Below the pieces are notes generated by a model, which saw nothing but the letters and a program-made list of their open reading frames with translations, ran no database searches and had not been told where the DNA came from. A stretch of DNA of 64,000 nucleotides. Origin: a virus. The DNA is taken from IMG/VR virus record IMGVR_UViG_640427134_000001, positions 29,660 through 93,659 of that record. One strand, given 5' to 3'. The position numbers and the translations under genes were made by a program. Shown here one piece after another: positions 6,818 to 34,922 of the stretch. The number at the start of each line of letters is the position of its first letter. Within the stretch, counting starts at the first letter, position 1.

Positions 6818-6867
6818 AAGAATATTCCTATCGTCATTGAAAAAAATTGAACATATCCGATAGGGTT

Positions 6868-6907
6868 ATATTAAGACTCGCCTAGACACCCTTTTTAGGG
6901 GTGTTCC
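6868..6907 (-). promoter_or_regulatory. Putative late promoter (GGAACAC-N27-TAATAT) for the capsid operon
   Basis: GTGTTCC at 6901-6907 and ATATTA at 6868-6873 on +; the same spacing recurs at three other late operons. Confidence 0.7.
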
Positions 6908-6913
6908 AATAGC

Positions 6914-6937
6914 AAAAAACCGCCGTTTTAGGCGGTT
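6914..6937 (-). terminator. Intrinsic terminator
   Basis: AACCGCC-N6-GGCGGTT stem followed by a U-run on the minus strand. Confidence 0.7.
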
Positions 6938-7014
6938 AATGAGTGTTGCTGGCAGAGGTTTACATCAAGAAGGTTAGAAAAAACACCAGTACAAGGTTAA
7001 ATGTGTCTAAAACC

Positions 7015-7581
7015 TTACTTGTACGGTACTTCCACATCCTCAATTTCGCTTTCATCGAACGCATCTAAATATTCCAGGTCAAATCTTTGGTTTAGAAGGT
7101 ACCTATGGCCATGACTCACCAACAATGAATTACCAACCACGCCCACGCACTCATGGTATTCCTTATGGTTGTTTAATAAGAAGCAAAACAGGTCGCCTTT
7201 TTTGGGGTTCCAGTCTGGTCTCATTCTTATGCGATCATCGCCTTCCAAATCAATATCGTAAGGCTCAATCAATACCATTGAGCTAAACTGCTCTGGGGTG
7301 ATAAACATGCCGCTATCGTGCATAGGCCCGCCTAAGCTATCTAGTAGCACCACCATAGCGTGCCCTAATGGCTCATAGTCTATTGAATGTTCATCACTGT
7401 CACTTACTGTACCAAGGCCAGCCCATGACAAGTCTGAACGCTCATAATCATCATCATTAACTGTTAGCACTTTACGTCTAAATACAAACGTCGGGATCGT
7501 TGATTGATTGCGCAGCGTGATAATACGCGTACTTAGCGCCTGGCCGTCTGTGACTAGCTTATTTTCAATTTTAAGCGTCAT
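7015..7581 (-). CDS. Putative head-tail/baseplate protein (possibly P1 gp24-like)
   Basis: Adjacent to the gp25-like gene; only weak motif similarity. Confidence 0.45.
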   Translation of the reverse strand: MTLKIENKLVTDGQALSTRIITLRNQSTIPTFVFRRKVLTVNDDDYERSDLSWAGLGTVSDSDEHSIDYEPLGHAMVVLLDSLGGPMHDSGMFITPEQFSSMVLIEPYDIDLEGDDRIRMRPDWNPKKGDLFCFLLNNHKEYHECVGVVGNSLLVSHGHRYLLNQRFDLEYLDAFDESEIEDVEVPYK

Positions 7582-8780
7582 CGCTCACCCCATTTCTTTT
7601 CAAAATCTTGAATATCTGCTTGGTATAGCTGCTTGTACCTGTCTGGTATGCCTTTTTGCTGTAACTGGCTTTGTGCATACTTATAGCTGCTTAATTCAGC
7701 CTTTGTTGGCTCATGCGGGCGTGCTTTAGCTTGCCGTTTTTGTTCAGTGCGTACTTTTTGCTCGGCCTGTTTAACCGCTTGCTTAATAACCTTCGACCAA
7801 TGTAAACGGCCATTCCAGTTGTTGAGTGCTTGAGTCTGTTTGGCTGCTTCTCGTTTGACTTGCTGGCTTGTGCGTCTATGCGATTTAACCTGGTTTTCAG
7901 CCATGGCAATATCAGCCTTGGCATAGTCTCTTACCTGGCTTAGCATCATGCCGCTTGTTAAGTGCTTCATTACTCGCAAGGCGTGTTTGCAAGCCACCCC
8001 TGTTAAATTAGGGTTACGTGTTGATGGATAGCGGTTCTCGTCTATTCCATAGTTGTACTTACCAACGGTGGCAATATAGCGATACCAAAATTGATGACGG
8101 CCACAGTCACAGTCAAATCTTATCTTGCCGTGCAATATGCTATTTCTTACCTCTGCCAAACTAGACGGCTTAGTTCTTAGCAGCAATCCAGGGTAATCTA
8201 GCAGCTGTACTGTTACCTTGTGGTTAGCAACCTTACTTTCTGGCCCTGAATTGGTTAAGAAAAACAAGGTATTGCCTTGTCTCTTATAAACCATGGCCAT
8301 GTAAATTTGCTTGTTGGCTCGCTGGATATCAACGGGCCTTGAGTTGTTGATCACGTCTTGAGGGGTTATACCTCCAGCAAACTTTTTAGCCGCCTTCTTA
8401 ACGTTTGCCAGGTATGCGTCTAATACACTTGCGTCCAATACCTGCATTAAGCTTTCGTTACGCTTGGTATTGCCTAGCGTAAATTCCAATAGCTCGCTTG
8501 CTGATATGCCGGCTAAGCTTTTAGCACTGGCCACCAGGGATTGTAATTGCTGGCTAGTTAGCCTTTCACCGCCCTTGATATCCCTGATCGTATCTTTTAG
8601 ATACCTGTTATGCTGGCTGGCAAATTTGCCCTGCTCGCTGGCCTGCCTGGCTGTATCAATACGCCAACGCCTAAGCTCTTCAAGGCTCATATTGTTTACA
8701 AGCCTATCCTGCCGGCTTACTGGGTTATCCTGATTTTTTGGGCTGTTATTGTTAAACCAGTCCGTATCTAAGTTATCCAT
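7578..8780 (-). CDS. P1 gp25-like tail protein with Cys/His (SWIM-like) motif
   Basis: G(K/R)IRFDCDCGRHQFWYRYIAT...RNPNLTGVACKH closely matches the recalled P1 gp25 motif. Confidence 0.78.
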   Translation of the reverse strand: MDNLDTDWFNNNSPKNQDNPVSRQDRLVNNMSLEELRRWRIDTARQASEQGKFASQHNRYLKDTIRDIKGGERLTSQQLQSLVASAKSLAGISASELLEFTLGNTKRNESLMQVLDASVLDAYLANVKKAAKKFAGGITPQDVINNSRPVDIQRANKQIYMAMVYKRQGNTLFFLTNSGPESKVANHKVTVQLLDYPGLLLRTKPSSLAEVRNSILHGKIRFDCDCGRHQFWYRYIATVGKYNYGIDENRYPSTRNPNLTGVACKHALRVMKHLTSGMMLSQVRDYAKADIAMAENQVKSHRRTSQQVKREAAKQTQALNNWNGRLHWSKVIKQAVKQAEQKVRTEQKRQAKARPHEPTKAELSSYKYAQSQLQQKGIPDRYKQLYQADIQDFEKKWGER

Positions 8781-9071
8781 TTACGCCCCTTTTAAATACT
8801 TGCGTTTGATTGCTATTAAATCCCTAGCGACTGGCAAAAAGATAATGTCTTTTGGCAATGGCTGGCCAATCCTATTCGTGCCAGCGCATACCATAACAAC
8901 GTCTGCATAACTGCGATCCCTGTACGCTCTAAACGCAATTAACGTGGGGTCGTGAATTTCATCACTACCCACTTTCCAGGTTATTAGCCTATCGGTGCGG
9001 CCACGTCGATAAAGCAAATCAACGTGGTCACGTATCGCATTGTGATAAATGTTTAATATGTTCTCAATCAT
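8781..9071 (-). CDS. P1 gp26-like / LysM-like baseplate protein
   Basis: DEIHDPTLIAFRAY...VVMVCAG...LP pattern; next to gp25-like gene as in P1. Confidence 0.68.
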   Translation of the reverse strand: MIENILNIYHNAIRDHVDLLYRRGRTDRLITWKVGSDEIHDPTLIAFRAYRDRSYADVVMVCAGTNRIGQPLPKDIIFLPVARDLIAIKRKYLKGA

Positions 9072-9073
9072 GG

Positions 9074-10405
9074 TTAAGCTGTCCGTAACCAGTAAGCCAC
9101 AACGATTGAAGGCTGCACGTTATTGTGCGGCTTATCTTTCCACCCTGTTTCCGATGTGGGTAAAGGAATCATCTTGCCTTGGGCGCCACTCGCGTAACCT
9201 GTACCACCTCCGCCGTGCCTACGTGCCCCGTGATAACCTGCCTCCCTGACTTTAAGCGCGGTTGAGGGCATCTCTTCGGCTACCAGCTTATGCTCATAAG
9301 CACCAAATGATGATTTAAGCGTCTTGGTCCATGCCGGATCAGCTGCTTTGGTTGATATACCAACAAGCGTTTTACCTTCTGCGAACCTGGCCCACGTGCC
9401 ATAACCTAAAGCAGCCTTAACCTCTGCACTGCTTTTATAGTTATTGGTTGTGGTATAGATAGAACCGATTGGCAGTTCGGTAACTTTGCTTTGAGCCGCC
9501 ACAAGCTGTTGCTGCAATTGCTCAATCTGCTTTTTCATGCCAGCCAGGTCAGACTCTCTTAGGTATTGGCTATGAGGGTGTGCTGCACTGGTATGGCCTG
9601 ATAAGTCTGTTTTTTTAGCATACTGGGTATGAGGGTCGGCTGCCTTGGTATGGTTGCTAAGATCGGTTGATACCTTCGTTATATCTTTACTGTGTTGTGT
9701 CAGCTGTCCACCATGCTGGGTTAGCGTGCCAGCGTGTGTATCAACTAGCTTTTTAAGTGCGTCGTGTAGCTTAACGTGTGCGTCATGTACTGTTTTAAGC
9801 GTGTATTGCGGGTGAGGGTTAGCAGCTGCAATGTGCTTGCTTAAATCACCCGATGCCGTATTGATATTTTGGCCTAGCTTATCCACCTTCTTATCAAGCT
9901 GTGAAAACTTATCGTTATTAATATATTGAGGGTGTGGATTGGCTGCGCCTACATGATCTTCCATCATCTTAACGACAATAGCGGCGTCAGGATCGGTTGA
10001 AACCGTTATGTTCTCAACGTCGATTTCGCCTAGCGATAAGCCAAAACTACCAACAAAGGTAACGTTTGCATATACGGTAAATAAAGGGGTGTTGCTGGCT
10101 GCTACTGCAAACAGCGTATTATCGCTTGTAAGCAATCCGATCTCGTGAATAACTCTTGATTGAATGCTGTTTAAGCTAACACTAAATCGCAAAGACTTAC
10201 TATCCTTCTCAATACCACTTGTCACGATATCAGAACGCATAGCCTCTGTTCTAATACGTGTTTCCTTACCAGTTGGGACGTACTTCGACGTGCCAGCGAC
10301 AAGCGTTTTTAAAGACAAGCTTATACCTTGCTTTTGAGCGTCTAGCACTGCTAAACGCCCTGCGTCGGTTATTTTAAATATAATTGGGTTGGGTTTATTC
10401 GCCAT
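9074..10405 (-). CDS. Tail fibre / short fibre protein
   Basis: N-terminal ITDAGRLA...EIGL....LFAV baseplate-attachment domain, four HxxAAxPHxQY repeats, and a C-terminal PIGSIY...GTW...HNNVQP collar-like domain. Confidence 0.8.
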   Translation of the reverse strand: MANKPNPIIFKITDAGRLAVLDAQKQGISLSLKTLVAGTSKYVPTGKETRIRTEAMRSDIVTSGIEKDSKSLRFSVSLNSIQSRVIHEIGLLTSDNTLFAVAASNTPLFTVYANVTFVGSFGLSLGEIDVENITVSTDPDAAIVVKMMEDHVGAANPHPQYINNDKFSQLDKKVDKLGQNINTASGDLSKHIAAANPHPQYTLKTVHDAHVKLHDALKKLVDTHAGTLTQHGGQLTQHSKDITKVSTDLSNHTKAADPHTQYAKKTDLSGHTSAAHPHSQYLRESDLAGMKKQIEQLQQQLVAAQSKVTELPIGSIYTTTNNYKSSAEVKAALGYGTWARFAEGKTLVGISTKAADPAWTKTLKSSFGAYEHKLVAEEMPSTALKVREAGYHGARRHGGGGTGYASGAQGKMIPLPTSETGWKDKPHNNVQPSIVVAYWLRTA

Positions 10406-10440
10406 GACTTACGCAATCCTTAAAATTTCGGTATTGCATA

Positions 10441-10479
10441 AGTTTAACCACTTAGGCTGGCAAGTATGCCATGTGTTCC
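10441..10479 (-). promoter_or_regulatory. Putative late promoter (GGAACAC-N26-TAAACT) for the fibre-gp26-gp25 operon
   Basis: GTGTTCC 10473-10479 and AGTTTA 10441-10446 on +. Confidence 0.72.
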
Positions 10480-10489
10480 ACCTGCCAGC

Positions 10490-12055
10490 CTACTCACCAA
10501 GCAATTCATCGGCCGCTTGCTTTAATAGGTCTAATTCATCGCTTTCAGTGCTACCGATATTTAGGTCCTCGTAACTTTCAACCGGCGCATAGCTTATGTT
10601 CTCCATAAAGCCAAACGCTATGGTATCTGCAATATCCGGTGACTTAATGCCCTTTTTGAGCATGTCTTTTTTGGACATCATGCACCAACGCGCCTTTTCA
10701 TCAAAGTAATACGGTAAGCGCGTCATCTGCTCTTCTAAGTTAGTCATTACCTGGTACATTTTTTTAACCTTATCGCTTACACTGAAATAGCCTTTTTCTA
10801 CTGCCTTAGCCATTGATACATAAGCGTGGCTGCGTTTGTTCATGTAGTAGCGTTTGAGCGTGTTGTTAAAGCAAGGCGAACCCCAATGCACTTCATCAAA
10901 ATACACCCCATCAGCTTTTAACGACTGCGTTAACCCCATACCAGCGCCTAGGGGATCAATCACCAAGGTCGCGCCTGGATAATCGCTCATTACATCATTG
11001 ATTTTGGCTTTAAGCGTATTGATATTAGCTCTATTACTAAACAGCGGTATATCAAGTAAATGTACGTGCCTCTCAATACGGCCCTTGATCATCTTATCAA
11101 CGACTTGCATTACCGATATCACGCTACTATCGCGGCCAACGTCGCCGCCCACGTCCACGGCTACGATGATACCCCACTTGTCACCCTCTTCAATCACGCA
11201 AGGCTGCTGCTTCATATTCTCGTAGTCAGTGCGCGTTAATAGGTACTCACCTTTAAGCTCTGGGAACTTACCGCGAATACGAATTAGATACCCTGGGCTG
11301 TTTCGACTGCCATACTGATACAAAGCCTCGATCAGCTTGTCCTTACTAACGATCGGTGACATTTCACCGTTAAATTCAAGCGCGGTCCACTTACCGCCGT
11401 TATGGTGGCTTAGCTTATGGTGTGTGTCGTAGAAGAAACCGGTGTTTTTAGCCGGCTGGCTAGTTAATACGGCCCTGTTGTTTTCATGGGTTAATGCGCC
11501 AATGGCAACTTCCATTACCGCGTCATCAATACCACAAGCTTCATCAGCCCATACCATGTAGTGATCGCCGTGTTGACCGGCAATGTTAGTTGGTTGGTGT
11601 TTAGGTGCTGTCTTAGCAAAAACGAACCAGGTATCTTTAAAACCCTTGATGTAAATCTTTTCTGCCAGCACGACAACATAATCAGCAAGCCAGCCTAGCG
11701 CCTTGTTATTGCGTAGGCGCTGCAAACAGATATTAATCTCTTTCCAAACAACCGTTCTAAGCTGGCCAATTTGAGGGGCGGTAAACAGCATTACCGACTC
11801 GGGGTAAAATAAAAGGTGCCATAAGGCGATAATGCCGGCCGAGCGCGATTTGCCAGTGCCATGACCAGATGCAACGCTTGTACGGCTGCCAGGGACAACA
11901 ATAGATTTAAACAATAGCTCTTGCTGCCAGGTTACTGCTTGTCCGGCCTGTATTGTCATATCTAAAGCTTCAACGGCAAAGCGCGTAATGTCATAGCGAT
12001 ACCTTTGGCATACCTCACGCCATTCAGGTAACAGCATTAAATCATCTAACATCAA
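10490..12055 (-). CDS. terL: Terminase large subunit, P1 PacB-like
   Basis: SVASGHGTGKS Walker A, VWADEACG Walker B, VDVGGDVGRDSS nuclease motif and C-terminal SPDIADT; N-terminus WREVCQRYRYD matches PacB as recalled. Confidence 0.92.
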   Translation of the reverse strand: MMLDDLMLLPEWREVCQRYRYDITRFAVEALDMTIQAGQAVTWQQELLFKSIVVPGSRTSVASGHGTGKSRSAGIIALWHLLFYPESVMLFTAPQIGQLRTVVWKEINICLQRLRNNKALGWLADYVVVLAEKIYIKGFKDTWFVFAKTAPKHQPTNIAGQHGDHYMVWADEACGIDDAVMEVAIGALTHENNRAVLTSQPAKNTGFFYDTHHKLSHHNGGKWTALEFNGEMSPIVSKDKLIEALYQYGSRNSPGYLIRIRGKFPELKGEYLLTRTDYENMKQQPCVIEEGDKWGIIVAVDVGGDVGRDSSVISVMQVVDKMIKGRIERHVHLLDIPLFSNRANINTLKAKINDVMSDYPGATLVIDPLGAGMGLTQSLKADGVYFDEVHWGSPCFNNTLKRYYMNKRSHAYVSMAKAVEKGYFSVSDKVKKMYQVMTNLEEQMTRLPYYFDEKARWCMMSKKDMLKKGIKSPDIADTIAFGFMENISYAPVESYEDLNIGSTESDELDLLKQAADELLGE

Positions 12056-12063
12056 CTACCCCA

Positions 12064-12588
12064 TTAAATACTAAAAGGCATTAAACCATAGTCGCTATCC
12101 TTGTCGTTTGAGCTATCATCAAGCGTTATTGGTGCGGTTGACATAAGATAGCCACCGTGTATCTTTCTAGCCGCCCAAATAGCCAATAAAACGGCCATGT
12201 GGCCATTGGTAATGCCCATTGAGTCAAAGTCTAATACTTTTCCTCGTTCGTCCATTTTGCGCATCTGAATAACGTCTTTTGGCTCATACCGTCTTAACGC
12301 ATCCTCAATCAAAATTAAGCCTGATCGCTGGGCCTCGTTATACACAGCCATAACCTCTGCCATTTGCTCGGACTCGTTAAAACTCATATCCCAGTAATCA
12401 AAGATCATTGGCGTATCAGTGACTACCACAGCATTATCTTTTGGTACCGGCTGCTCTTTCCACGTGGCTTGTTTTTTAAGCATAACCCTGCCTGATGCTG
12501 GCAAGACAACGCCTAATACGCGTATAGCCTCGCCAGCATAAGCGGCCGCCCTTGCGTCAATAACAACCGGCTTAACCTGGTCATTCAT
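12064..12588 (-). CDS. Hypothetical phage morphogenesis protein
   Basis: 174-aa ORF coupled between the PmgC-like gene and terL. Confidence 0.55.
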   Translation of the reverse strand: MNDQVKPVVIDARAAAYAGEAIRVLGVVLPASGRVMLKKQATWKEQPVPKDNAVVVTDTPMIFDYWDMSFNESEQMAEVMAVYNEAQRSGLILIEDALRRYEPKDVIQMRKMDERGKVLDFDSMGITNGHMAVLLAIWAARKIHGGYLMSTAPITLDDSSNDKDSDYGLMPFSI

Positions 12589-13591
12589 CGCCGGCAGCCC
12601 CTTTCTTGGCCACGTTAGTTTCAGTGATTACACCCGTATCAGGGTCAATAGCAACTCTGACTTCATGGTCTGAATCTTCATCATCAACATTGGCTTCGAT
12701 AACCAGGCTATTAAGCTTCTCATAGCTATCACGGTTCCCCTCAACTGGCTTATCCCCTGGAATCGGAACTCTTGGCGGGTTAATAGCTGGGCCTTCTGGG
12801 TTTTCAGGATCAAGCGGTATCGTTGGCTTCTCTGGATCATATTCAGGGTTTGGCCGTGTCGGTAAGCTCTCTTGTGGCTCTCCAGTATCGGTCACTTCAT
12901 CCCAATCACCACCCAATCCCACAAACTCAGGAATAGCACCAACGATCGTACAATCAACCGTTACGATGAATAGGTTTTTAAGGTCAATAGATGCGTTATC
13001 AGGGTAAAGGCTGTTTTCTAATACCCTAAAATTCCAATCATCTTTAATCGCCTTACCCTCAAGAACCCCAACGTCATAAGACACTGGGAATGTTCTTTTC
13101 TCTTCGTGTTTCCAAAAGCTGGCAAACTGCCTGGCAATATCCGACGCGCTATGGGGATCGGGGCTAAAAAAGGCAATTTGACAACGATAAGCCACGGGGA
13201 CCGATCGCATTTGCACCACTCGCTTTAATGGATCTTGAGGTAGCACCACGTTTACCCAATACGGTAGGCCGCCTACCTGGTCATATTCAGGCGGCGTTTC
13301 AATCGGACTAATGGCCGTCATGAGGACCGGTAAGTAAACGGACGAGCCGGACTCTTTTTTGTAACCTGCGTTTTTTGCGTTATCGTTTTCCTGGATAGCT
13401 TTTAACATGCTCTCCACATCATCGACCATTGAGGTTTTGGCCACAACAATAGCCGCTTCTAGCCTGCGTCGTTTCCAGTCATAAACGCCTTGAGTGGTTG
13501 GCATGCACCACTGCCTAAAGTCTCTTAGATTCATGGCCCATGCCAGCTGCAAGCACTCAAGCGGTGATAGTAGTCGTTTTGTCTTGCTCAT
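12581..13591 (-). CDS. P1 PmgC-like neck/tail-terminator protein with Pro-rich C-terminus
   Basis: LPVLMTAISP and PVAYRCQIAFFSPD...A..FASF resemble recalled PmgC segments. Confidence 0.5.
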   Translation of the reverse strand: MSKTKRLLSPLECLQLAWAMNLRDFRQWCMPTTQGVYDWKRRRLEAAIVVAKTSMVDDVESMLKAIQENDNAKNAGYKKESGSSVYLPVLMTAISPIETPPEYDQVGGLPYWVNVVLPQDPLKRVVQMRSVPVAYRCQIAFFSPDPHSASDIARQFASFWKHEEKRTFPVSYDVGVLEGKAIKDDWNFRVLENSLYPDNASIDLKNLFIVTVDCTIVGAIPEFVGLGGDWDEVTDTGEPQESLPTRPNPEYDPEKPTIPLDPENPEGPAINPPRVPIPGDKPVEGNRDSYEKLNSLVIEANVDDEDSDHEVRVAIDPDTGVITETNVAKKGAAGDE

Positions 13592-13605
13592 TGCTCAACC
13601 CTTAA

Positions 13606-14538
13606 TTAAAGACCACGGAATCTATCAACAATACTGATGCGCTCTTCTTGTCTATCTGACTTGCCAGCCACTTTATCTAGCTCGCTTATGCGTAAATCTG
13701 CGTCTGATGTACTGCCAATATGAAAGCTATCCCATTGGGCCTTAATTTCATCAAACGGCTTAGAAGGGCAAATTAGGCTGTCAAAAAGCTCTAATTCTCG
13801 CTGCTTCTTGCGCTCTAATACTTTTTGACGACGCATTTCTGCATTTATCAAAGCGTCCTGGGCTGCTAGTGCTTCACGCTGATAATGGCTTACCAGTGAC
13901 TCTGAATGTAGGGCTGTTTGCATTGAGTCGTATTGAGCAATGATGATGCGCTCTAAAGCCTCTTTTAAGACAATCTGATCTTGTGGTAGCTCTACCAGGC
14001 TATCAAAGCACGCCTCACCTTCGGTATAAGCGCCATTCAAGATACTATCAAACATGCCGTCGCCTTTATTTGTGGCATAGTTTGGCGTTCTCACATAGTC
14101 AAAGCCATGAAAGCCGGTGACCTCATAATAACCGTCTGGCTTACGTCTGCGGTTAATAGCACTACTAAACCCGCCAGCTTTATTCGCGTATAAGCGCGCG
14201 GCAAATTGGCCGTCGTCGGTATCTAAGAACTCATGCTGCGTAACAACGTTTCCATCATCGTCGGCTTCAAGTCGAATTGTGCGTAAGGCTGGCTGGATTT
14301 TAATAATACGGCCCGTCTTTTCATCCACCCATTGGTCTGGTGGGTACATGCCAAAACGAGCACGTATCTCATGGCCATTAAAGCCAAACAAATCACCACT
14401 GCTAACAAGCTCTTGAACCTCTGGTGAATTAATCTTGTTAACCATTGAGCGAATATCTAAATCTGATCTATCCTGGCCATTGTATTTGCGACCACGGTCC
14501 GCCAGGTTGTATGTAATAACTTTAGTTTTCTTAGCCAT
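13606..14538 (-). CDS. Prohead protease, P1 Pro-like
   Basis: G(D/E)LFG(F/Y)xGH, PALRT, AGGFS and FHGFDYVRTPNY match recalled P1 Pro motifs. Confidence 0.8.
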   Translation of the reverse strand: MAKKTKVITYNLADRGRKYNGQDRSDLDIRSMVNKINSPEVQELVSSGDLFGFNGHEIRARFGMYPPDQWVDEKTGRIIKIQPALRTIRLEADDDGNVVTQHEFLDTDDGQFAARLYANKAGGFSSAINRRRKPDGYYEVTGFHGFDYVRTPNYATNKGDGMFDSILNGAYTEGEACFDSLVELPQDQIVLKEALERIIIAQYDSMQTALHSESLVSHYQREALAAQDALINAEMRRQKVLERKKQRELELFDSLICPSKPFDEIKAQWDSFHIGSTSDADLRISELDKVAGKSDRQEERISIVDRFRGL

Positions 14539-14585
14539 GAAAAAAAACCCCTTAAAAAAGGCATAGAATATTTAATATATGCCTT

Positions 14586-14624
14586 AGTTTAAGGGGTTAA
14601 GCTGTTTTGCCTTTGGGGTGTTCC
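14586..14624 (-). promoter_or_regulatory. Putative late promoter (GGAACAC-N26-TAAACT) for the protease-terL operon
   Basis: GTGTTCC 14618-14624 and AGTTTA 14586-14591 on +. Confidence 0.72.
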
Positions 14625-14999
14625 TTTAGGCGAAAAAAAAGGCCGCCAGGGAACGGGGCAGCCAAAAAAAATACAAGGATCAATAGAAATAACACGTCAT
14701 CGTAAAAACGGGGTAGAACCGCCCCGAAATTGTCGGAGACTCAACGCTCCAAGAGAATACGACAATGAAAACACGAGGCTATACCCCTGAAATGAAAGAG
14801 CGAGCCGTCCGTATGCTAATTGAAGCTAAAGCCGATTACCCATCCACCTGCTCAGCCATCAAAGCTATAGCACCAAAGATAGGTTGCACACCTGAGACCC
14901 TACGATCATGGCATAAAAAGCACGTAGATAAAACTGATGTATGCTGAAAAAAACGGACAAAAATATTTGGTAAACTAGAATCCTAAACAGGAGTTTACC

Positions 15000-15296
15000 A
15001 TGAGTAAGAAAAGAGTAGAATACAGCGACACTTTCAAAGCTGAAGCCATCGCCAAAGTCAAAGAAAATAACGGCAACATCAGTCAAACGGCTAAAGAACT
15101 TGGCATACCCATGAACACACTAGCAAACTGGCATAGGAAGGCTGAAAGAGGCGTACTTGCAGGCACCCAAAATTACAATTCTGAACTCATAGCCGCCTTG
15201 GATGAAATCAAAGACCTAAAAAAACAACTAAGAATCGCTCAAGAGGAACGAGAAATTCTAAAAAAGGCAACGGCGTACTTTGCCAAGAATCAATAG
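15000..15296 (+). CDS. IS3 transposase OrfA (HTH)
   Basis: YSDTFKAEAI...ILKKATAYFAK signature. Confidence 0.92.
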   Translation: MSKKRVEYSDTFKAEAIAKVKENNGNISQTAKELGIPMNTLANWHRKAERGVLAGTQNYNSELIAALDEIKDLKKQLRIAQEEREILKKATAYFAKNQ

Positions 15297-15310
15297 CCAA
15301 GTACGCCTTT

Positions 15311-16165
15311 ATGCAAGAGAATCGATTGAAATACTGCATACAACGTATGGCGACCGTATTTGAAGTCAGCCTATCAGGCTACTATGACTGGCTAAAGCGA
15401 GGCATGAGCAAGCGAAAACAGCACCACAATCGCTGTGAGTTACTGGTCAAATCCGCTCATATGGATACACAGCAAAGCTATGGGCATGAACGCTTGCATC
15501 AGCATTTAACCAGCCAAGGACACGACATCAGCCTGTACATGGTTCGGCAAATCAAGCAAGAACATGGTATTTACTGCAAACGCCACAAGCGATCTAAGGT
15601 GACTACTGACTCAAATCATAATAAGCCTGTGTATCCAAACTTGTTAGAACAGCAGTTTGACGTGGCAGCACCCAATATCGCTTGGGTTAGCGATATTACC
15701 TATATTTGGACCAATGAAGGCTGGGTGTACTTGGCAGCGTTCAAAGACTTGTACAGCAAAGAGATTGTGGGATATGCTCTAAATAAGCGTATGACCGCTG
15801 ATTTGGTTTGTGAGGCTTTAAACAATGCCATTAAGTACAAACGCCCTGCTCGGGGCTTAATCGTGCATTCTGACAGGGGTAGTCAGTATTGTAGCCATCA
15901 ATACCGCCAAATCATCGACAAGTATGGTTTTGCTGGCTCTATGAGCCGAAAAGGCAATTGCTACGATAACGCCCCGATTGAAAGCTTCTGGGGTCAGTTA
16001 AAAAACGAGCTGATTTATCACAAAGTCTATGAGACTCGTGATGAAGCCATTAAGGATGTGGTTAGATATATTGAGATTTTTTACAACCGTCAACGAATAC
16101 AAAAAGGGTTAGGATTTAAGTCACCTACTCAAGTATTCCAAGACTTTTACCGTCAGGCTGCCTGA
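15311..16165 (+). CDS. IS3 transposase OrfB (DDE), likely joined to OrfA by a -1 frameshift
   Basis: WVSDITY, HSDRGSQY and DNAPIESF motifs. Confidence 0.93.
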   Translation: MQENRLKYCIQRMATVFEVSLSGYYDWLKRGMSKRKQHHNRCELLVKSAHMDTQQSYGHERLHQHLTSQGHDISLYMVRQIKQEHGIYCKRHKRSKVTTDSNHNKPVYPNLLEQQFDVAAPNIAWVSDITYIWTNEGWVYLAAFKDLYSKEIVGYALNKRMTADLVCEALNNAIKYKRPARGLIVHSDRGSQYCSHQYRQIIDKYGFAGSMSRKGNCYDNAPIESFWGQLKNELIYHKVYETRDEAIKDVVRYIEIFYNRQRIQKGLGFKSPTQVFQDFYRQAA

Positions 16166-16607
16166 TGAAATCTACCAAATGTTTTTCTCCGTTGTTGACA
16201 GCAGAGGTCAAACCATTCCTGCAAATATTCAAGCTCAAAGCCAAGCCGAGCGTATCAAAGAGCTTGAACGTGAGAACAGAGAACTAAAACAAGCCAATGA
16301 CATTATAAAGAAAGCTACAGGTCTTGAAGCCCAGACGCAGCTCGACCGCAAACCCCCAAAATAGTCTGTTATAAGTGGCTTTATTATAACGGTCTATTTT
16401 AGGTGGTCTATTAATGTTTTATAAGGCGTTTTCAGGTGGTTCTGCTAGGGTATACTGAAAATAAACTTGTCCTGTGCCTGATTCCAGTAAAACACTCTCC
16501 GAAAATATCGAGACGATTCACGGTTGGTTACAGATAGTTTGGGTATTATTTTTATCTCTATGCTTGATAGGCTTTATGAGCTTACCACAAATAATTTTTT
16601 CATTCGG

Positions 16608-17408
16608 TCAGTCCTCGCTTTCATCCGACCAATTTTGACTCAACTCACTCACCAAACGACTCTCATCGCATTTAAAATCAATATAGTGATAGGTATTGGC
16701 AGGCAATAGCCAATCCTGCCCTGTCAGTGGACATTTTTGTTCCATATCTTCTGCCTTTGTCCAATCACGGTAATTCATTAAAAAATAATAGGTGGGTACA
16801 CCTGTGCTTTGTTCAATGATACGGCACAATTCTCGACCTATTTTGCTATGCTCAGAATTGGGATTTTGCATTTGCTCTAAGGCAAAGGCTTCACTTACTG
16901 GTTGAGAACCAAGCCACAAACGATATAACGCTTCAGCCTGTCGATACCATGACCACACATTATCATAACAAGGGTGATCAGGTTGGGTATATGGGATTTT
17001 ATATAGAGGAATGCCTTGTAAGGTTACTCCATCTAGTAAAGGCGAACTCCAGCCCCAACGCAACATGTAAAATTCAGATTGCGTTGGTACGGCATAACGG
17101 GGAAGAGGATAGTCATGGTCTTCTCCGATATACAAGGTTTGAATGGGTTTACCTGCTAACTGTTCGATTTTATTGTGCATTTCTTGGGCATAGCTGTTCA
17201 TATTTTTACGGTCAAGGGCATCCATTTCAGGACACACTACAGTCACGCGAGTAATATCATTTTGGCTAACAGCTAAATGATGGTTACGGGGTAATATTTG
17301 TCCGTTGCCTTCTAAATCTCCTAAATAACAAAATACATCATGGTCGTGGCTGTCATCATCTTCAGCGATACCTGTATATTGGGGTATGATAATATCAAAG
17401 GCGTGCAT
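16608..17408 (-). CDS. DUF2310 Zn-ribbon-containing protein
   Basis: GNGQIL, SPL..G...IPLY.IP, GRELC..IE..TG.PTYYFL and CP..G..W...FKC..SRLVS pattern. Confidence 0.8.
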   Translation of the reverse strand: MHAFDIIIPQYTGIAEDDDSHDHDVFCYLGDLEGNGQILPRNHHLAVSQNDITRVTVVCPEMDALDRKNMNSYAQEMHNKIEQLAGKPIQTLYIGEDHDYPLPRYAVPTQSEFYMLRWGWSSPLLDGVTLQGIPLYKIPYTQPDHPCYDNVWSWYRQAEALYRLWLGSQPVSEAFALEQMQNPNSEHSKIGRELCRIIEQSTGVPTYYFLMNYRDWTKAEDMEQKCPLTGQDWLLPANTYHYIDFKCDESRLVSELSQNWSDESED

Positions 17409-17616
17409 TTTTATATCTCATGCTTAATTTATATTAAATATAGTTGGGGATGTTGCTGTTGAAATTGGTTAAAGTGCTGTCTTGTAGTGGCAATTTAACC
17501 TATACCGTCAATGCCGTACACTCAAAATCGGGATATTTTGGTCAGACAATTAGCAGATTTTTTAAGTATAATTAAAGTTAAACAGCGGCTCAAATTTACT
17601 TAAGAGTATTAAAAAC

Positions 17617-18384
17617 ATGGAACTAAAATCAATAAAAGACCAACTTTATTACTCCACTGTGATGATCGAAACAGCTCAAGGAGCAGGAACGGCTTTCTTA
17701 CTATCCAAAACAATAGTTGGGCTTACTAGAGTCTATTTAGTAACTAACAAACATGTGGTTAAAGATAAAACAGACTGTGTGGTTAGATTCCATAGATCAG
17801 AATCCTTGGATCCGAAAACCAAAGTAGGTGACTTTGTTTATCACTTCACGAATGAAGACTGGGTTAATGGCTGGAAGTTTCATGATGATAATGAAGTTGA
17901 TTTAGCAGTATTTAATTTAACAGAAACAATAGCTGCTCTTTATCAGCAAGAGCACTATATATTCTATCGTTGTCTAACAACGGATATGATTACTAGTAGG
18001 GAAAAAGAAAAAGATATTGTTGTAATGGAAAGGATATTTTTCGTAGGTTATCCTAATGCTATTAGGGATGAAGTTAATAATTTACCTATAGCGAGAAGTG
18101 GCTATTTAGCTACACCTTTATATTCGAATTTCGATGGAAAAGAAGCGTTTTTGTTCGATGCTAGTGTCTTTGAAGGGTCGAGTGGTAGTCCGGTATGTAT
18201 TGTGAATGAAAATTTTGAAACTTATTCCGATGCAAGGGGAAATGCTAAAATCGAAGGGCGCTGTATCTTAGCTGGAGTAAACTCTAGTACATATACTAGA
18301 GTAAGCGATAAACAATACTTAAATATTGGATACGCATGGAAAGCTTATAAAATTTTAGAAATTCTTGAACAGAACGAAATATAG
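17617..18384 (+). CDS. Cytoplasmic trypsin-like serine protease
   Basis: Catalytic triad contexts LVTNKHVV, VDLAVF and GSSGSPV; no signal peptide seen. Confidence 0.85.
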   Translation: MELKSIKDQLYYSTVMIETAQGAGTAFLLSKTIVGLTRVYLVTNKHVVKDKTDCVVRFHRSESLDPKTKVGDFVYHFTNEDWVNGWKFHDDNEVDLAVFNLTETIAALYQQEHYIFYRCLTTDMITSREKEKDIVVMERIFFVGYPNAIRDEVNNLPIARSGYLATPLYSNFDGKEAFLFDASVFEGSSGSPVCIVNENFETYSDARGNAKIEGRCILAGVNSSTYTRVSDKQYLNIGYAWKAYKILEILEQNEI

Positions 18385-18444
18385 TTTAATCTACACTATG
18401 AATTAAGGAGACCATCCGAGACCATCCCGAATTCTGGTCACTAT

Positions 18445-18735
18445 CTAGTTTTCTAGCAATCTTCTAAGCTCAAATTTTGCTTTCTCAAAATTGCTAAAAA
18501 TGATATTCAGTACACTTATTTTTTCGTCAGTTCCTTCAAACTCACTATACCAGTATTCAAAGTCGAACTGACCATCAGATTCATAAGTAATCTTTATAGC
18601 TTTTTTCTTGTCTTTGTGAATAAAGCTGACGTTATCTTCGGTATCTAGCAAAGTGCCATCATTACCATTCTTATTAAGCCATAACTGCCAATTTTGTGCG
18701 GTAGTGACACTACGCCATAATTCTAGCGATTTCAT
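18445..18735 (-). CDS. Hypothetical protein
   Basis: 96-aa AT-rich ORF. Confidence 0.55.
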   Translation of the reverse strand: MKSLELWRSVTTAQNWQLWLNKNGNDGTLLDTEDNVSFIHKDKKKAIKITYESDGQFDFEYWYSEFEGTDEKISVLNIIFSNFEKAKFELRRLLEN

Positions 18736-18938
18736 AATTTCTCTATTGGTAGTTTTATTGATTAAGTTGACGGATTTTAAGCTTAAAACGCTAAAATTTT
18801 GTACACCTTGAAGTACACAGTGAATATTTTAGCAAGTTAGTACGTTGATAACATTAGCCTGTAGCCTATTTTTCAAGTCCTCACTAGGGAGCCGAACCAG
18901 TAAAGATGCCTAACTGGTTCGCCATAGGTGTAGCTGTT

Positions 18939-19535
18939 TTACGATTTTACAGTAGGATAAGGATTATTCACTAGGGGGCTAACATCCGTTTGCATTTGCC
19001 ATACGAAGTAAACAAAAATCACTATAACAGCTAGAAAACAAAGTAGACTAAGATTTTTAGCTATTTTAGTGAACCATAACTCTTCAGAATATATAGCATT
19101 TGCTTTGTATTTCTTTTCACCTCCCAATAGTAAGTAGTATCTTTGAACCTGTAGCTTATAGCCCAAATCCTTAGTATTGATTACGTCTGTATATAGGTAA
19201 ATAGCACCAAATACGATACCCAGTGCGTTTACGGATATGGCGATTTTTAATAAAATTAGCTGATCTAATGATAGTGACGACCTATCAGGCATTTGAGTGA
19301 TAATAACTGAAAAAACACCAGCTGCTATCACAATAAGCCATTTCATCCACTCATTATCTTGCTGTTTTGCTAAATTATTTTGCTTAACAATTTCTCTTTC
19401 GAGTTCGTCAAGGTAATGCTTTAACAGTTGATATTTATATAAAAATTCCTCGCTAAGATCATTGTCAAGTTTACTTTCTAACTCATCTTGCAGAAGCTTA
19501 AATTCTTGCTTGCTCGTTAATTTTTTCGGACTCAT
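18939..19535 (-). CDS. Membrane protein of unknown function
   Basis: Several hydrophobic segments; coupled to the upstream ORF. Confidence 0.6.
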   Translation of the reverse strand: MSPKKLTSKQEFKLLQDELESKLDNDLSEEFLYKYQLLKHYLDELEREIVKQNNLAKQQDNEWMKWLIVIAAGVFSVIITQMPDRSSLSLDQLILLKIAISVNALGIVFGAIYLYTDVINTKDLGYKLQVQRYYLLLGGEKKYKANAIYSEELWFTKIAKNLSLLCFLAVIVIFVYFVWQMQTDVSPLVNNPYPTVKS

Positions 19536-19762
19536 GATTCTTTCTCATCAACTTCTGAACTTACATAGCTAATAGTCTCTGAAGGTGTCTCTTTTTTCCT
19601 TGGTCCACTAACCAAGATGAGCCCCCAGATTCTTTGTAGTCTGCTATTTTCTAACATGGTATAAGCAGTTACACAAAGTTTAGGAAAGTCTCGTAGTAAG
19701 TCGTGCTGCATCCGATAACGTCTACCGTCGTACATTGTTCGCAGCATTAATATCACAGTCAT
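19532..19762 (-). CDS. Hypothetical protein
   Basis: 76-aa ORF directly downstream of the tape-measure-like gene. Confidence 0.5.
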   Translation of the reverse strand: MTVILMLRTMYDGRRYRMQHDLLRDFPKLCVTAYTMLENSRLQRIWGLILVSGPRKKETPSETISYVSSEVDEKES

Positions 19763-19774
19763 AGTGAGTTAAAA

Positions 19775-22726
19775 CTAACCCCAATACCTACCTTCACCCA
19801 ACCCTCCCGTAATCGCATGTGCAAGCCCTCTATCTGAAACATTTTGACCTATATTATCATTATTAGACTGAACTATGATAGGCTTGTCCAGACCACCACC
19901 TGCCAGCGGCAATTTAAACGAAGGCATTTCAGGGATGTTAAGCACATTTTTTAGTATTGACGCGCCCAAATCGAGGCCTATTGACTGGCTGGCTGGTAGG
20001 TAGGCTGGCGTGTTACCTACAACAAAGTTATTGGCCAAGCCGCCAACATTAACACCTAACACACTGTTAGTTGTTTTGGTTTTTTGTTGAACCGACTGAA
20101 CCGCTGTATTATTGTAGATACCCTCTGCAATTTTCGCACGCTCTCTCTTTTCAGCCTCAACTGCACCTGGTCGCTCGTAGTGCTCTGACACAATAGCCCC
20201 GGACTGGCCTGCTGTTTTGGCTTGTTTTAGCTTATTACCAGCCGCCTTCTCTTTACCCTTCGTTAGCTCATACTGAATAAAAGCTAACTGCTCTTCGAAC
20301 GACGCTTGCTGTACTGACTTACCCATAGTGCTACGGAAGTCTGCAAGCCTGCTATCTCGCCATTGAGCTAAGCCATGTGCCCTATATACACCGTTTTTAT
20401 CTTTATCCCCTTGAGCTCTAGGGTCGAACCTACTTTCTTTTTGGATGTTAGCGACAATACCAGCGGCTTGCTGCTTAGTCCAACCTTGAGACATGAAGTA
20501 TTGCATAGCCTGATCACGTCTAGTCTTTTCACTTTGTGAAGTTAGTCTGCTCGAACTAACATCAACTGCACCGCCGCCGCTTAACTGGCCTCTAAGCTCT
20601 TTGTAAGGATCAACTACTGTTACCCCAAATTGACGGCCATTAAGGTTTTTGACGTACTCGCTAAGCTCTGTTTTTCTTACACCGCTTTTACCATCCTTGC
20701 CTTTAGCTGATGTAGATTCAGAAACGTATTTAACGCCGTTTTCTTCAATGATCTGCACAATATGACCGATGTCTTTGTATCTGCCTTCTTTTTTTGCATG
20801 CTCCCCACGTGACTCACCGATAACCATGCCAGCCTGCAACTTATTGATATCTAGTTGAGCCCAGCTGTTTGCTGTGGCTACCAGGTGCCCTTTCTTTTCC
20901 TCTGACTGAATAATACCGGCTGCACCATTGCCTGCATTAATACGAGCACGTTTAGCCGCCTCTGGCCCTAGCTGATCTTCAATCTGTCTTACGGTATCTT
21001 TGTTTAATTGATCAACCCAGCCTGAACAATCAATAACACCGCCGCTAAAGTTTTTAGCACCCATTTTATAGGTTACGCCGTCTTTGGCTGATGTTAACCC
21101 TGAACCAAAATCAACCTTCCAGCCGCCCGAACCATTACCACCGCCAAAAAAGCTACCAAACCCATCGCCCATTCTTGATAGCCACGACTTCATGCCGCTG
21201 GCCGCCTCGCTTAGCTTAGAAAAGACCGGTGCCAACCCACTTTCCCACTTAGTTTGCATTTTTTGAGGTAAGTTATAAGCCTTAACGCTATCGGTCCATG
21301 ACTTGATATGAGGCGAAGCTGTACTGCCTAAAACCTCGCCGCCCTCGTTACCTAGCCAGCCACCCACGGCCGCCCCAATGGCGGTACCTACCACCGGAAT
21401 TGGTATCAATGCCGTACCAAGTGCTCCACCAGCAACGGCACCGACACTACCGCCTGCCAGGCCACCTACATTTTCTGACTTCTCTTTGTGGTCACGCTCT
21501 TTCCACTGGCCAATCAAGTTGCCCAAGCCAACCGCCGTCGCTAACGGCCCTAAAACTTTAGCACTACCAACTACTTTGGCTGCCTTCTTGACACCCTCAC
21601 TGCCAATCTTGCCAGCGCCTAAAACAGCCGCGCCAGCTCCACCAGCCAAGATAGACCTAATACCCTTGCTTTTATCTTTACCTCCTTTACGGCCCTTATC
21701 CTTGCCTTTGCCTTTACCCCTGCCACCACCTAAAACACCTAAGCCACGACCCAACTTACCTAGCAGTGAACCTTCACTGTCTGGCATTCTCTTTAGGATC
21801 TCACCTAGCGTTTCCTCGTTCTGCTTATTGTGTCTTGCCTGATCCTTTGGCAATGGCTCTTTACGCTTTAAGCTTTTGTATTTAGAGAATGAAAACCTGC
21901 CAGCCCTTAAAGCTGCCTTGCCAGCCGCGCCGCCCATCTTGCCAGCTTTCGTGGCCATATTAAAAATAGGCGATGCAATGTCTTTTACCTCGTTCGCCGA
22001 GGCAATCAACGGATCAATGTTTTGAGCACCGCCATAACTGCCATAGCCTGTACGGCCACTCTTGGCTATTTTAGATAATGAGTCAAATAGCGTTTTTTCT
22101 TTGGCTGTAAAACGGCCTAGCTCGTCACGATCGCTTTCTTTTTGCTTCTTCTCACGCCCATTTTTGCCAGTAGGATTGTTTGCCTTACGTGTTGCACCAG
22201 GTACGCTGCCAGCGGCGTTATTTGCCGCTTCTGGGCTCTGACCTCTACCAGCACTTGATCTATTGGCACCGCTTGAGCCGCTATCGCTTTGATTGTTAGC
22301 TCTATTGGCCAGCGTTGAACCTGATTTGACTTTAGCGCTTGAGGTGACATTACTAAGCGTGTCGCTGCTCTTTTTACCAGCGGCCCTTGCCTCTTTTTGG
22401 GCTGGCTGGCTTGCACTACTTAATTTCTGCCTGTGTTGTTGCTTTGACTGCGCCTGGCCTTGCATGCTTGGCTGGCTGGCATCATTACGCCCTAGGCTTG
22501 TGGGATCGTAAGTAGGCACCACGCCCTTAATACGCATAGACTTTTTGTTAGCTATGCGCTCATTAGATTTAGCTATGCGGTTTAATACCGTTTGGTTGAT
22601 CTGATTTTGTGATTTTAGTATCTGTATGATTTCTTGGGTATCTTCACCAATGGATTTAATGCCGCTTTCTAGCCGCTTGGTACCAACGATGAAGCCTTGA
22701 TCATCATAGTTAAGATAAGTTGCCAT
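19775..22726 (-). CDS. Tape-measure / Sit-like virion protein with two peptidoglycan hydrolase domains
   Basis: Gly/Ala-rich hydrophobic stretch, NlpC/P60-like YKMG...DCSG...HI domain, and phage tail lysozyme domain (AAGIVANIQKES...GLAQW...EQLAFIQYEL...YERP). Confidence 0.75.
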   Translation of the reverse strand: MATYLNYDDQGFIVGTKRLESGIKSIGEDTQEIIQILKSQNQINQTVLNRIAKSNERIANKKSMRIKGVVPTYDPTSLGRNDASQPSMQGQAQSKQQHRQKLSSASQPAQKEARAAGKKSSDTLSNVTSSAKVKSGSTLANRANNQSDSGSSGANRSSAGRGQSPEAANNAAGSVPGATRKANNPTGKNGREKKQKESDRDELGRFTAKEKTLFDSLSKIAKSGRTGYGSYGGAQNIDPLIASANEVKDIASPIFNMATKAGKMGGAAGKAALRAGRFSFSKYKSLKRKEPLPKDQARHNKQNEETLGEILKRMPDSEGSLLGKLGRGLGVLGGGRGKGKGKDKGRKGGKDKSKGIRSILAGGAGAAVLGAGKIGSEGVKKAAKVVGSAKVLGPLATAVGLGNLIGQWKERDHKEKSENVGGLAGGSVGAVAGGALGTALIPIPVVGTAIGAAVGGWLGNEGGEVLGSTASPHIKSWTDSVKAYNLPQKMQTKWESGLAPVFSKLSEAASGMKSWLSRMGDGFGSFFGGGNGSGGWKVDFGSGLTSAKDGVTYKMGAKNFSGGVIDCSGWVDQLNKDTVRQIEDQLGPEAAKRARINAGNGAAGIIQSEEKKGHLVATANSWAQLDINKLQAGMVIGESRGEHAKKEGRYKDIGHIVQIIEENGVKYVSESTSAKGKDGKSGVRKTELSEYVKNLNGRQFGVTVVDPYKELRGQLSGGGAVDVSSSRLTSQSEKTRRDQAMQYFMSQGWTKQQAAGIVANIQKESRFDPRAQGDKDKNGVYRAHGLAQWRDSRLADFRSTMGKSVQQASFEEQLAFIQYELTKGKEKAAGNKLKQAKTAGQSGAIVSEHYERPGAVEAEKRERAKIAEGIYNNTAVQSVQQKTKTTNSVLGVNVGGLANNFVVGNTPAYLPASQSIGLDLGASILKNVLNIPEMPSFKLPLAGGGLDKPIIVQSNNDNIGQNVSDRGLAHAITGGLGEGRYWG

Positions 22727-22761
22727 GATAAAGCCTTATAAATACTGTACGTGTGGCTTGA

Positions 22762-22801
22762 ATTATGGCATTGCTGGCGGGTTGTGGGCTTTGAGTGTTC
22801 C
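22762..22801 (-). promoter_or_regulatory. Putative late promoter (GGAACAC-N27-CATAAT)
   Basis: GTGTTCC 22795-22801 and ATTATG 22762-22767 on +. Confidence 0.68.
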
Positions 22802-23507: not shown

Positions 23508-23516
23508 CGCAAATCC

Positions 23517-24008: not shown

Positions 24009-24143
24009 AATAGTTGCTGTTTGTTAACTCGACACCCCTTATTATAAAAATACTATAGCCATAAATTATGAATTATATTTTTATTTTTATTCTTAATTTA
24101 TATAATAAACTTCGTTCTTTCTCCTAAATGTGGTCTATTATTT

Positions 24144-25025: not shown

Positions 25026-25034
25026 GAAATTAGG

Positions 25035-28373: not shown

Positions 28374-28415
28374 GTTTAGTCCATAGATTTCTGTTTATTA
28401 ACACCCTAATTTATT

Positions 28416-29357: not shown

Positions 29358-29380
29358 AGCCGTTTCTCTTATTTTAAGCT

Positions 29381-33096: not shown

Positions 33097-33298
33097 AAGT
33101 ATCTTATTGTTTGTAATGGAAGTTAATAGAAATCCAGGCTCTAGCTTAAAAAGAAAAATCAATTGATTAAATCAAACTAGTTTAGGTCTATATTTTTACT
33201 TTGTCCATCTGCAACATGCTTTTACTTAACATACCAGGCAAGATATTTAACCTCGTTTACGTTAACAATAAGTCTCAAAAGCACAGCCAGTTAAAATA

Positions 33299-34875: not shown

Positions 34876-34888
34876 ACGCGCGCCCTCA

Positions 34889-34916: not shown

Positions 34917-34922
34917 CATGCT

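Follow-up and report, generated by a model that had tools for sequence, protein, structure and literature searches.

Late promoters set within hairpins that cover ribosome-binding sites in a P1-like temperate phage of Psychrobacter

The window analysed here is a stretch of 64,000 nucleotides (nt) of viral DNA, positions 29660–93659 of the 111-kb virus record IMGVR_UViG_640427134_000001. Its close relatives lie in Psychrobacter sanguinis and other Psychrobacter genomes, and the source phage is a Psychrobacter prophage. At each of the four late promoters of the window we find a hairpin, one arm of which overlaps or closely follows the −10-like hexamer while the other covers or abuts the ribosome-binding site (RBS) of the first gene. 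These helices occur in excess over chance, are restricted to promoter-proximal genes, covary in homologs and accompany a promoter of fixed geometry. The explanation that we favour, at a probability of about 0.6, is a transcript-specific lock of the type found at genes e, soc, 49 and I-TevI of phage T4, which, where a U-run follows the stem, is an intrinsic terminator as well.

How would such a lock operate? Each late unit of this P1-like temperate phage would begin at an activator-type promoter built into the 5′ arm of a hairpin, whose 3′ arm contains the Shine–Dalgarno sequence (SD) and/or the AUG of the first gene. RNA arriving from upstream, be it from the early operon, from the morons expressed in the lysogen (a restriction-modification (R-M)/lrgAB island) or from the preceding late unit, would carry both arms, and its ribosome site would be locked. 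RNA from the embedded promoter would start some 7 nt past the −10, at a point within or after the 5′ arm, would be free of the helix and would be translated. Where a U-run follows the stem (site 3, four other sites of the record and most homologs of site 3), transcription from upstream would be terminated a few bases before the start codon; the U-run would double as the spacer between SD and AUG, and upstream RNA would be both stopped and silenced. The start sites, what the hairpins do to translation and termination, and which protein is the activator are inferred; for the last, a helix-turn-helix (HTH) protein encoded at 34186–34875 is a candidate.

Hairpins at the late promoters

All the late genes concerned lie on the minus strand, which is the coding strand, and the four arm pairs were found on it just where a preliminary description of this DNA had placed them. 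The elements are listed below in window coordinates.

Site 1, capsid-like gene
6918–6937, minus strand: separate intrinsic terminator just upstream of the promoter, kept in the homologous leader L011 through compensatory changes
6901–6907, minus strand: GGAACAC box
6865–6873, minus strand: −10 region, overlapping TAATAT (6873–6868) and TATAAC (6870–6865)
6858–6864, minus strand: 5′ arm CCTATCG (P+43..49), with the predicted start (P+46) inside it
6827–6833, minus strand: 3′ arm CGATAGG, covering the SD (AGGA); ATG at 6817

Site 2, tail-fibre gene
10473–10479, minus strand: GGAACAC box, 11 nt past the terL stop codon (10490)
10441–10446, minus strand: −10-like hexamer TAAACT
10433–10442, minus strand: 5′ arm CTTATGCAAT, its first two bases being the last two of the −10
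10408–10417, minus strand: 3′ arm ATTGCGTAAG, abutting the SD (TAAGGA, 10422–10417) and ending 2 nt before the ATG at 10405

Site 3, protease gene
14618–14624, minus strand: GGAACAC box
14586–14591, minus strand: −10-like hexamer TAAACT, inside the 5′ arm
14578–14598, minus strand: 5′ arm AACCCCTTAAA-CT-AAGGCATA
14546–14565, minus strand: 3′ arm TATGCCTT-TT-TTTAAGGGGTT, holding the SD (AAGGGG)
14539–14547, minus strand: U-run (T8, followed by C) separating the stem from the ATG at 14538

Site 4, tail-lysozyme/tape-measure-like gene
22795–22801, minus strand: GGAACAC box, 8 nt past the lrgB stop codon, conserved in homologs
22762–22767, minus strand: −10-like hexamer CATAAT (P+34..39)
22755–22770, minus strand: 5′ arm TGCCAT.AT..AAGCC, containing the −10; the AAGCC of the preliminary description is 22755–22759
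22721–22735, minus strand: 3′ arm GGCTT.AT.ATGGCA, covering the SD (AAGGC) and the start codon 22726–22724

The spacing is the same throughout: GGAACAC is followed after 26–27 nt (28–29 nt counted from GGAAC) by the −10-like hexamer, and the 5′ arm begins inside that hexamer or at most 4 nt after it. The loops vary from 4 to 24 nt. At site 1 the stem has 7 base pairs (bp) and a 24-nt loop. At site 2 it has 10 bp, one of them G–U, with extensions that reach the AUG in the minimum-free-energy fold. Site 3 combines an 11-bp outer with an 8-bp inner stem (ΔG −23.6 kcal/mol); with T8 directly after this GC-rich stem it looks like an intrinsic terminator, in keeping with the dual role that had been proposed for it. 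The site 4 stem had been taken for the weakest, at 5 bp. AAGCC/GGCTT is present there, but the true helix is an interrupted one of 13 bp (−11.7 kcal/mol) that covers the whole −10 and the start codon, TGCCAT (overlapping the −10) pairing with ATGGCA (start codon) and AAGCC with GGCTT (SD).

Direct pairing of a −10 hexamer with a start codon is seen in the window between 22770–22765 and 22726–22721, and in the record at 23802 and 13924. Several −10 regions (TGCCAT, TCATAAT, ATGACAAAAT) carry a CAT complementary to the sequence around the gene's ATG.

How firmly is the RBS held? We computed the free energy needed to unpair its positions −15 to +5, both in a long leader starting at GGAAC or 100 nt further upstream and in a short leader, the RNA from the predicted start 7 nt after the −10. 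Chance was gauged by mononucleotide shuffles of the upstream 52 nt, 200 trials per site.

Site 1: 10.3 kcal/mol long, 6.3 short; long value reached by 2 of 200 shuffles
Site 2: 13.5 kcal/mol long, 4.5 short; 1 of 200
Site 3: 17.9 kcal/mol long, 8.7 short; 0 of 200
Site 4: 12.1 kcal/mol long, 4.5 short; 0 of 200

The comparison of long with short 5′ ends, which had been suggested at the outset, thus gives an occlusion of 10–18 kcal/mol in the former and 4.5–8.7 kcal/mol in the latter. Over all 51 leaders, homologs included, truncation at the predicted start lowers the mean opening energy from 11.6 to 3.3 kcal/mol.

Is the arrangement confined to the window? The full record contains nine intergenic GGAAC-N28/29-nAnnnT sites before long open reading frames (ORFs), five of which lie outside the window, to its left (positions in the record, G000).

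26183, minus strand: promoter before an ORF of 457 amino acids (aa)
23802, minus strand: promoter before an ORF of 179 aa
19323, minus strand: promoter before an ORF of 206 aa
13924, minus strand: promoter before an ORF of 907 aa
5900, minus strand: promoter before an ORF of 784 aa

An occluding hairpin is present at eight of the nine. Outside the window, four of the five promoters (all but 5900) have a clean stem and a U-run immediately before the ATG, the stems being GCCTATAT/ATATAGGC, AACCCCAA/TTGGGGTT, CCCTA.TC/GATTAGGG and AACCCTATTA/TAATAGGGTT, with a 5′ arm that begins 0–2 nt after the −10. At 26183, 23802 and 13924, as at site 3, the stem is GC-rich and runs straight into the U-run, in the manner of an intrinsic terminator. 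The occlusion is specific to genes that stand next to a promoter: among 42 minus-strand starts of the late region, the mean RBS opening energy is 13.5 kcal/mol for the nine promoter-proximal genes and 6.3 kcal/mol for the 33 others (Mann–Whitney p = 1e-4), and the corresponding z-scores against shuffles are +3.3 and −0.2.

The promoters themselves are of a type with a GGAAC box at about −45, a sigma70-like −10 and no −35; at seven of the nine an A preceded by a pyrimidine stands 7 nt after the −10, as read off the leader sequences. By raw count GGAACAC is not enriched in the window (6 observed, 4.6 expected), so the signal lies in position and context, not in number. An extracytoplasmic-function (ECF) sigma reading, with GGAAC as the −35 and a −10 some 16–17 nt later, was rejected: no conserved element stands there, and nAnnnT peaks only at 33/34. 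A literature search on GGAACAC gave only an unrelated primer. At site 1 the ACAC of the box opens a stem of its own, ACACCC/GGGTGT, between box and −10 (6885–6904 in the window). Box-derived stems also occur in other leaders, for example L027 (AACACC/GGTGTT with a U-run) and L085 (ACACGGC/GCCGTGT with T8), in both of which they make a terminator inside the promoter spacer.

Conservation in relatives of the phage

Each of the four proteins was compared with about 400 Moraxellaceae genomes, with matches down to about 25–30% identity. The GGAAC box and the −10 recur at a fixed distance upstream of all four gene families. Counted without choosing a register, the nAnnnT hexamer stands at an offset of 33 from GGAAC in 25 of 50 non-redundant leaders, at 34 in 26 and at other offsets in about 4; one or other of the two main offsets is used in essentially all 50. 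This is strong evidence, drawn from sequence comparison, that these elements are real promoters of a single class.

Do the two arms of a leader belong together? For 46 non-redundant leaders of the four families we compared the duplex of each promoter half with its own RBS half against cross combinations, a test that keeps composition and motif content. The mean energy is −13.15 kcal/mol for own pairs and −8.11 kcal/mol for cross pairs (Wilcoxon p ~ 1e-6 in both directions). Own pairs fall into the best tenth in 24 of 46 cases where 4.6 are expected: 9 of 12 in the site 3 family, the most strongly conserved, and, with partial conservation, 7 of 14 for site 1, 4 of 13 for site 2 and 4 of 7 for site 4.

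The covariation in homologs that had been named as a check is plain to see, pairing being kept by compensatory changes down to about 30% protein identity. The site 3 family has AACCCCTTAAA/TTTAAGGGGTT, AACCCCTT/AAGGGGTT, AGCCCC/GGGGCT, TGCCCC/GGGGCA, ATCCCC/GGGGAT, ATAGCCCCAA/TTGGGGCTAT, ATAGCCTTAAT/ATTAAGGCTAT, TCCCCAG/CTGGGGA (CCCCAG/CTGGGG) and AGCCCTAAT/ATTAGGGCT, almost all of them followed by a U-run. In the site 1 family we find CTGTATCG/CGATACAG, AATCCTAT/ATAGGATT, CCATATCGGT/ACCGACATGG and CATACCA/TGGTATG, the last two shifted onto the start codon. The site 2 family has TAGCCATAGT/ACTATGGCTA, CTAATAAT/ATTATTGG and ATTATTC/GAATAAT; the site 4 family, CCATAATTTA/TAGATTATGG and ACCCTAT/ATAGGGT.

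An exact 14-mer scan of IMG/VR gave 80 matches, mostly chance; the 20 with a −10 and an ORF were used. These promoters behave as those of the four families do, and in one of them (L189) the entire −10 has come to lie within the arm. Acinetobacter phage vB_AbaM_ABMM1 (OQ471969.1), an isolate, has the same modules of GGAAC, −10, hairpin and U-run before its Pro-like and capsid-like genes.

L127 510–590, from OQ471969.1: module of vB_AbaM_ABMM1
L128 480–605, from OQ471969.1: module of vB_AbaM_ABMM1

A lock on read-through RNA, and its rivals

In which transcripts could the helix arise? For 48 of 50 leaders the RBS partner starts at a point upstream of the predicted start, and for 22 of the 50 all partners lie upstream. 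With the 5′ partner upstream of the predicted start, the helix should be formable only on read-through RNA. By the predicted starts, the hairpin falls wholly within the late RNA in only two leaders. Several 5′ arms contain the −10 itself (window site 3, L054, L056, L189), and since the arm slides over or after a −10 whose distance from GGAAC is constant, the helix is not expected on RNA initiated there. By motif geometry, then, the transcript of the embedded promoter would lack the 5′ strand of the helix. The preliminary description had claimed that read-through RNA carries both arms while late-promoter RNA is missing most of the 5′ arm, and at the predicted starts that claim agrees with 48 of the 50 leaders.

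Is there read-through RNA to be locked? Neither the 8-nt gap between the lrgB stop codon and the site 4 box nor the 11-nt gap between the terL stop codon and the site 2 box holds a terminator, and read-through is therefore plausible in the prophage. With GGAACAC only 8 nt from the lrgB stop codon, moron transcription should run into the site 4 hairpin. Twenty public runs contain the region, all as assembled contigs, which cannot show 5′ ends; four RNA runs were examined and gave none. Some of their contigs stop near the hairpins, perhaps where assembly broke at an inverted repeat, and this speaks neither for nor against the model.

The preliminary description had seen the hairpins as a safety lock. 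Pairing beyond chance, specific and conserved, supports this in part, and we would add two things to it. First, termination appears to be as much a part of the device as RBS occlusion, given the U-runs at site 3, at four of the five other promoters and in most homologs of site 3. Second, read-through RNA at site 2 would have started at site 3, itself a late promoter, and have crossed terL without meeting a terminator, so the lock would also uncouple late operons. It would guard not only against early or lysogenic transcription; late operons would be separated from one another as well.

Several points weigh against the lock. It is not obvious what the phage would gain by blocking RNA of a different late promoter, should it need all late genes at one time. 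A hairpin had been claimed for every late promoter, which holds for all four in the window and for eight of nine in the whole record, where the promoter at 5900 shows no RBS occlusion. The −10s and start sites are assigned from the motif alone. Were the start at sites 1 and 2 only 4–6 nt further upstream (P+40..42), the helix would survive, so that its loss there requires a start that precedes the predicted one by about 3 nt at most. The pairing is also unevenly conserved: among the homologs of sites 1 and 2, about half rank no better than cross pairs. Finally, the stems are almost all Watson–Crick and folding energy does not differ between the strands, the sense strand being favoured in 27 of 51 leaders (p = 0.46); for selection on sense-strand RNA, support thus comes only from the U-runs and from the presence of RBS sequence in the 3′ arms.

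The main rival holds that the hairpins are intrinsic terminators and 3′-end stabilisers of the preceding units, into which genome compaction has moved promoter and RBS, with occlusion a functionless by-product. It draws on the strong GC-rich stem and U-run before the ATG at site 3, at the four promoters outside the window and in most site 3 homologs, and on the composite terminator/promoter cassettes (PeSLs) known in T4-like phages (PMC4122927, PMC2839356). It fails at sites 1, 2 and 4, none of which has a U-run (0–1 T in the 3–4 letters listed after the helix), and above all at site 1, where a separate terminator already stands 11 nt before the GGAAC box and an RBS-covering stem is present all the same. 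The 3′ arms, moreover, consistently include the SD and/or the AUG, and in L029, L027 and L087 the arm tracks the start codon. We regard this rival as unlikely.

Less likely again is a start upstream of the 5′ arm, by which the late RNA would hold the whole hairpin, as an attenuator or translational operator in need of an antiterminator or a Com-like activator, or as a 5′ stabiliser. In com/mom of phage Mu a protein opens an RBS hairpin, which is a precedent, and our starts are predictions from the motif. Against it stand the arms that slide over a −10 fixed relative to GGAAC, pairing from a point ahead of the predicted start (48 of 50 leaders, many with the −10 inside the arm), and the failure to recognise a Q-like or Com-like gene among the scanned ORFs of the early-right operon (33299–38923).

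Could the inverted repeats act as DNA, as operators of a dimeric regulator or as aids to promoter opening? Their overlap with promoters, the nearly complete Watson–Crick pairing and the lack of strand asymmetry in folding energy would fit. A single regulator would need a common site, however, and the arm sequences differ at every promoter of the phage; loops run from 4 to 24 nt, one arm is always with the SD or AUG, and the T-run is on the coding strand only. We judge this very improbable. Chance complementarity between C-rich promoter flanks and G-rich SDs, which easily match over 4–5 nt and against which a lone 5-bp stem at site 4 would not be significant, is rejected for the set as a whole by the shuffles, the control genes and the own-versus-cross test, and can scarcely be the explanation.

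Known systems and genomic setting

The analogy with T4 made in the preliminary description is accurate. In T4 e, soc, 49 and I-TevI the DNA for the 5′ strand of a helix that sequesters the SD/AUG also contains the late promoter (PMC3014915, PMC2988022); 5′ ends have been mapped, and long transcripts, of early or middle origin, are translated about 100-fold less than late-promoter transcripts, which lack that strand (PMC3014915; PMC2988022). Further cases are I-TevII/III, segB and Aeh1 mobE (PMC3014915, PMC2988022). The likeness is that of an SD or AUG in a helix on upstream RNA, with the promoter in the 5′ strand, here read from sequence and from starts predicted by the motif. In T4 it concerns a handful of genes of a lytic phage, with TATAAATA promoters that depend on gp55 (gp55/gp33); here it concerns eight of nine late promoters of a temperate P1-like phage, is conserved in a Moraxellaceae prophage family and often includes a U-run terminator that at the same time spaces SD from AUG. 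The arrangement thus works like the T4 cases but stands outside the T4 system, since its promoters are of the form GGAAC-N28/29-nAnnnT and not TATAAATA.

The PeSLs of T4-like phages consist of a stem-loop terminator and a promoter between genes and mark the boundaries of insertions and deletions (PMC2839356, PMC4122927). In the window one insertion boundary coincides with a promoter: the 5.1-kb insertion has an edge 3 nt before the site 3 GGAAC box. PeSLs have promoters of the early sigma70 kind, and they are nearly identical repeats with a supposed role in driving recombination. In the Psychrobacter phage nothing but the GGAAC(ACCCCTAAA) box and the −10 is common to the sites; the stems differ from gene to gene, and the RBS lies on the 3′ arm.

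Phage P1, with its Lpa-dependent late promoters, has related morphogenesis genes (Pro has a homolog here) and, likewise, several late promoters that depend on an activator and have a −10 but no −35. In the P1 annotation these have a 9-bp box centred at −22, whereas the box of the Psychrobacter phage is at about −45. The P1 late leaders have unremarkable overall folding z-scores, and those of LPpro and LPlyz show nothing clear. To our knowledge a systematic hairpin at late promoters has not been described for P1. At LPdar, CCTCCT, which starts 3 nt after the −10 (TACCAT), pairs with AGGAGG, the SD of lydA (holin), in the same promoter-in-hairpin geometry.

L130 16172–16238, minus strand (AF234172.1 about 31171–31237): P1 LPdar/lydA

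Phage lambda (PR′–tR′, Q) also places a terminator between promoter region and late genes, and its late genes are co-oriented with PR. There, the terminator lies inside the late transcript of a single promoter and is overridden by Q. In the Psychrobacter phage the promoters are many and each is nested in the hairpin, so that its own RNA should never contain the terminator. Both arms lie downstream of the start, as in lambda, in just the two leaders of 50 named above, by the predicted starts.

What is new here? The mechanism is already known in T4, and composite terminator/promoter cassettes in T4-like phages (PMC4122927). New are the temperate P1-like setting with its activator-dependent promoter class (box at about −45), the penetrance, at eight of nine promoters and conserved across a prophage family, and the three-way fusion of promoter, terminator and RBS. 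Somewhat short of even odds, in our estimation, is a wider proposal: that throughout a Moraxellaceae lineage of temperate P1-like phages (those of Psychrobacter and relatives, including vB_AbaM_ABMM1) essentially every late unit starts with such a fused module in about 50 nt. Late proteins would then be made only from RNA of their own promoters, a genome-wide transcriptional and translational insulation that would stand in place of lambda-style antitermination, and under which morons and insertions could build up between late operons with no leaky expression.

If the starts are as the motif predicts, late genes would be insulated in a manner unlike the textbook models of lambda (antitermination) and of P2 and Mu (activator only), every late unit carrying a combined stop signal, start signal and translational lock. 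Tolerance of the R-M/lrgAB island and of an insertion-sequence (IS)-borne 5-kb insertion directly upstream of late genes would be explained, and the T4 gene e mechanism would be a general design, not a T4 curiosity. The module would be a compact natural part for synthetic biology (terminator, inducible promoter and conditional RBS in about 90 nt). As an isolated relative, ABMM1 is a cultivable experimental system in which the mechanism is directly testable.

The genes around the four sites, in window coordinates, are as follows.

39022–39681, plus strand: cI-like repressor, facing the cro-like early operon
38923 downwards, minus strand: cro-like early operon, ending with the HTH protein (34186–34875) and a 295-aa gene
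22809–33162: island between the early operon and the first late promoter, with type I R-M genes (hsdM/S/R and an Mrr-like gene), a LysR gene and lrgAB
19775–22726, minus strand: 983-aa tail-lysozyme/tape-measure-protein-like late gene with a phage tail-lysozyme domain (PHROGs/Pfam)
13606–14538, minus strand: site 3 gene, 310 aa, homolog of P1 Pro (37% identity)
stop codon at 10490, minus strand: terL, the late gene upstream of site 2
9074–10405, minus strand: tail-fibre gene (PHROGs/Pfam support)
5009–6817, minus strand: site 1 gene, 602 aa, capsid-like, a 25% match to the 'major capsid protein' of Xanthomonas phage Rb1

Along the direction of transcription the order is early operon, R-M/LysR/lrgAB island, 983-aa gene, 310-aa gene, terL, fibre and capsid-like gene. 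The late genes had been said to be co-oriented with PR, and the minus-strand layout indeed has them in the direction of the cro-side early operon. The earlier labels hold for the protease, by its identity to P1 Pro, and for the fibre and tape-measure-like genes, by PHROGs/Pfam; that of the capsid gene, with its 25% match, is plausible only. Rfam (E ≤ 1) gave no family match between 4000 and 23500, and megablast of the late region against GenBank phages gave no match.

The insertion of about 5.1 kb at 14628–19771 spans exactly the interval from the stop codon of the 983-aa gene to the site 3 GGAAC box. In contigs of relatives 14627 is joined directly to 19772, which identifies the interval as an insertion with one edge 3 nt from that box. 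It contains an IS3-family element (15000–16165), a DUF2310 gene, a trypsin-like peptidase and small ORFs. The element is present in two inverted copies, at 15000–16165 (plus strand) and 54150–55315 (minus strand), with ORFs of 98 and 284 aa; an rve domain was seen for 15311–16165 in the first, and the second is assigned from its equal ORF sizes only. The two inverted copies could invert the roughly 38 kb lying between them.

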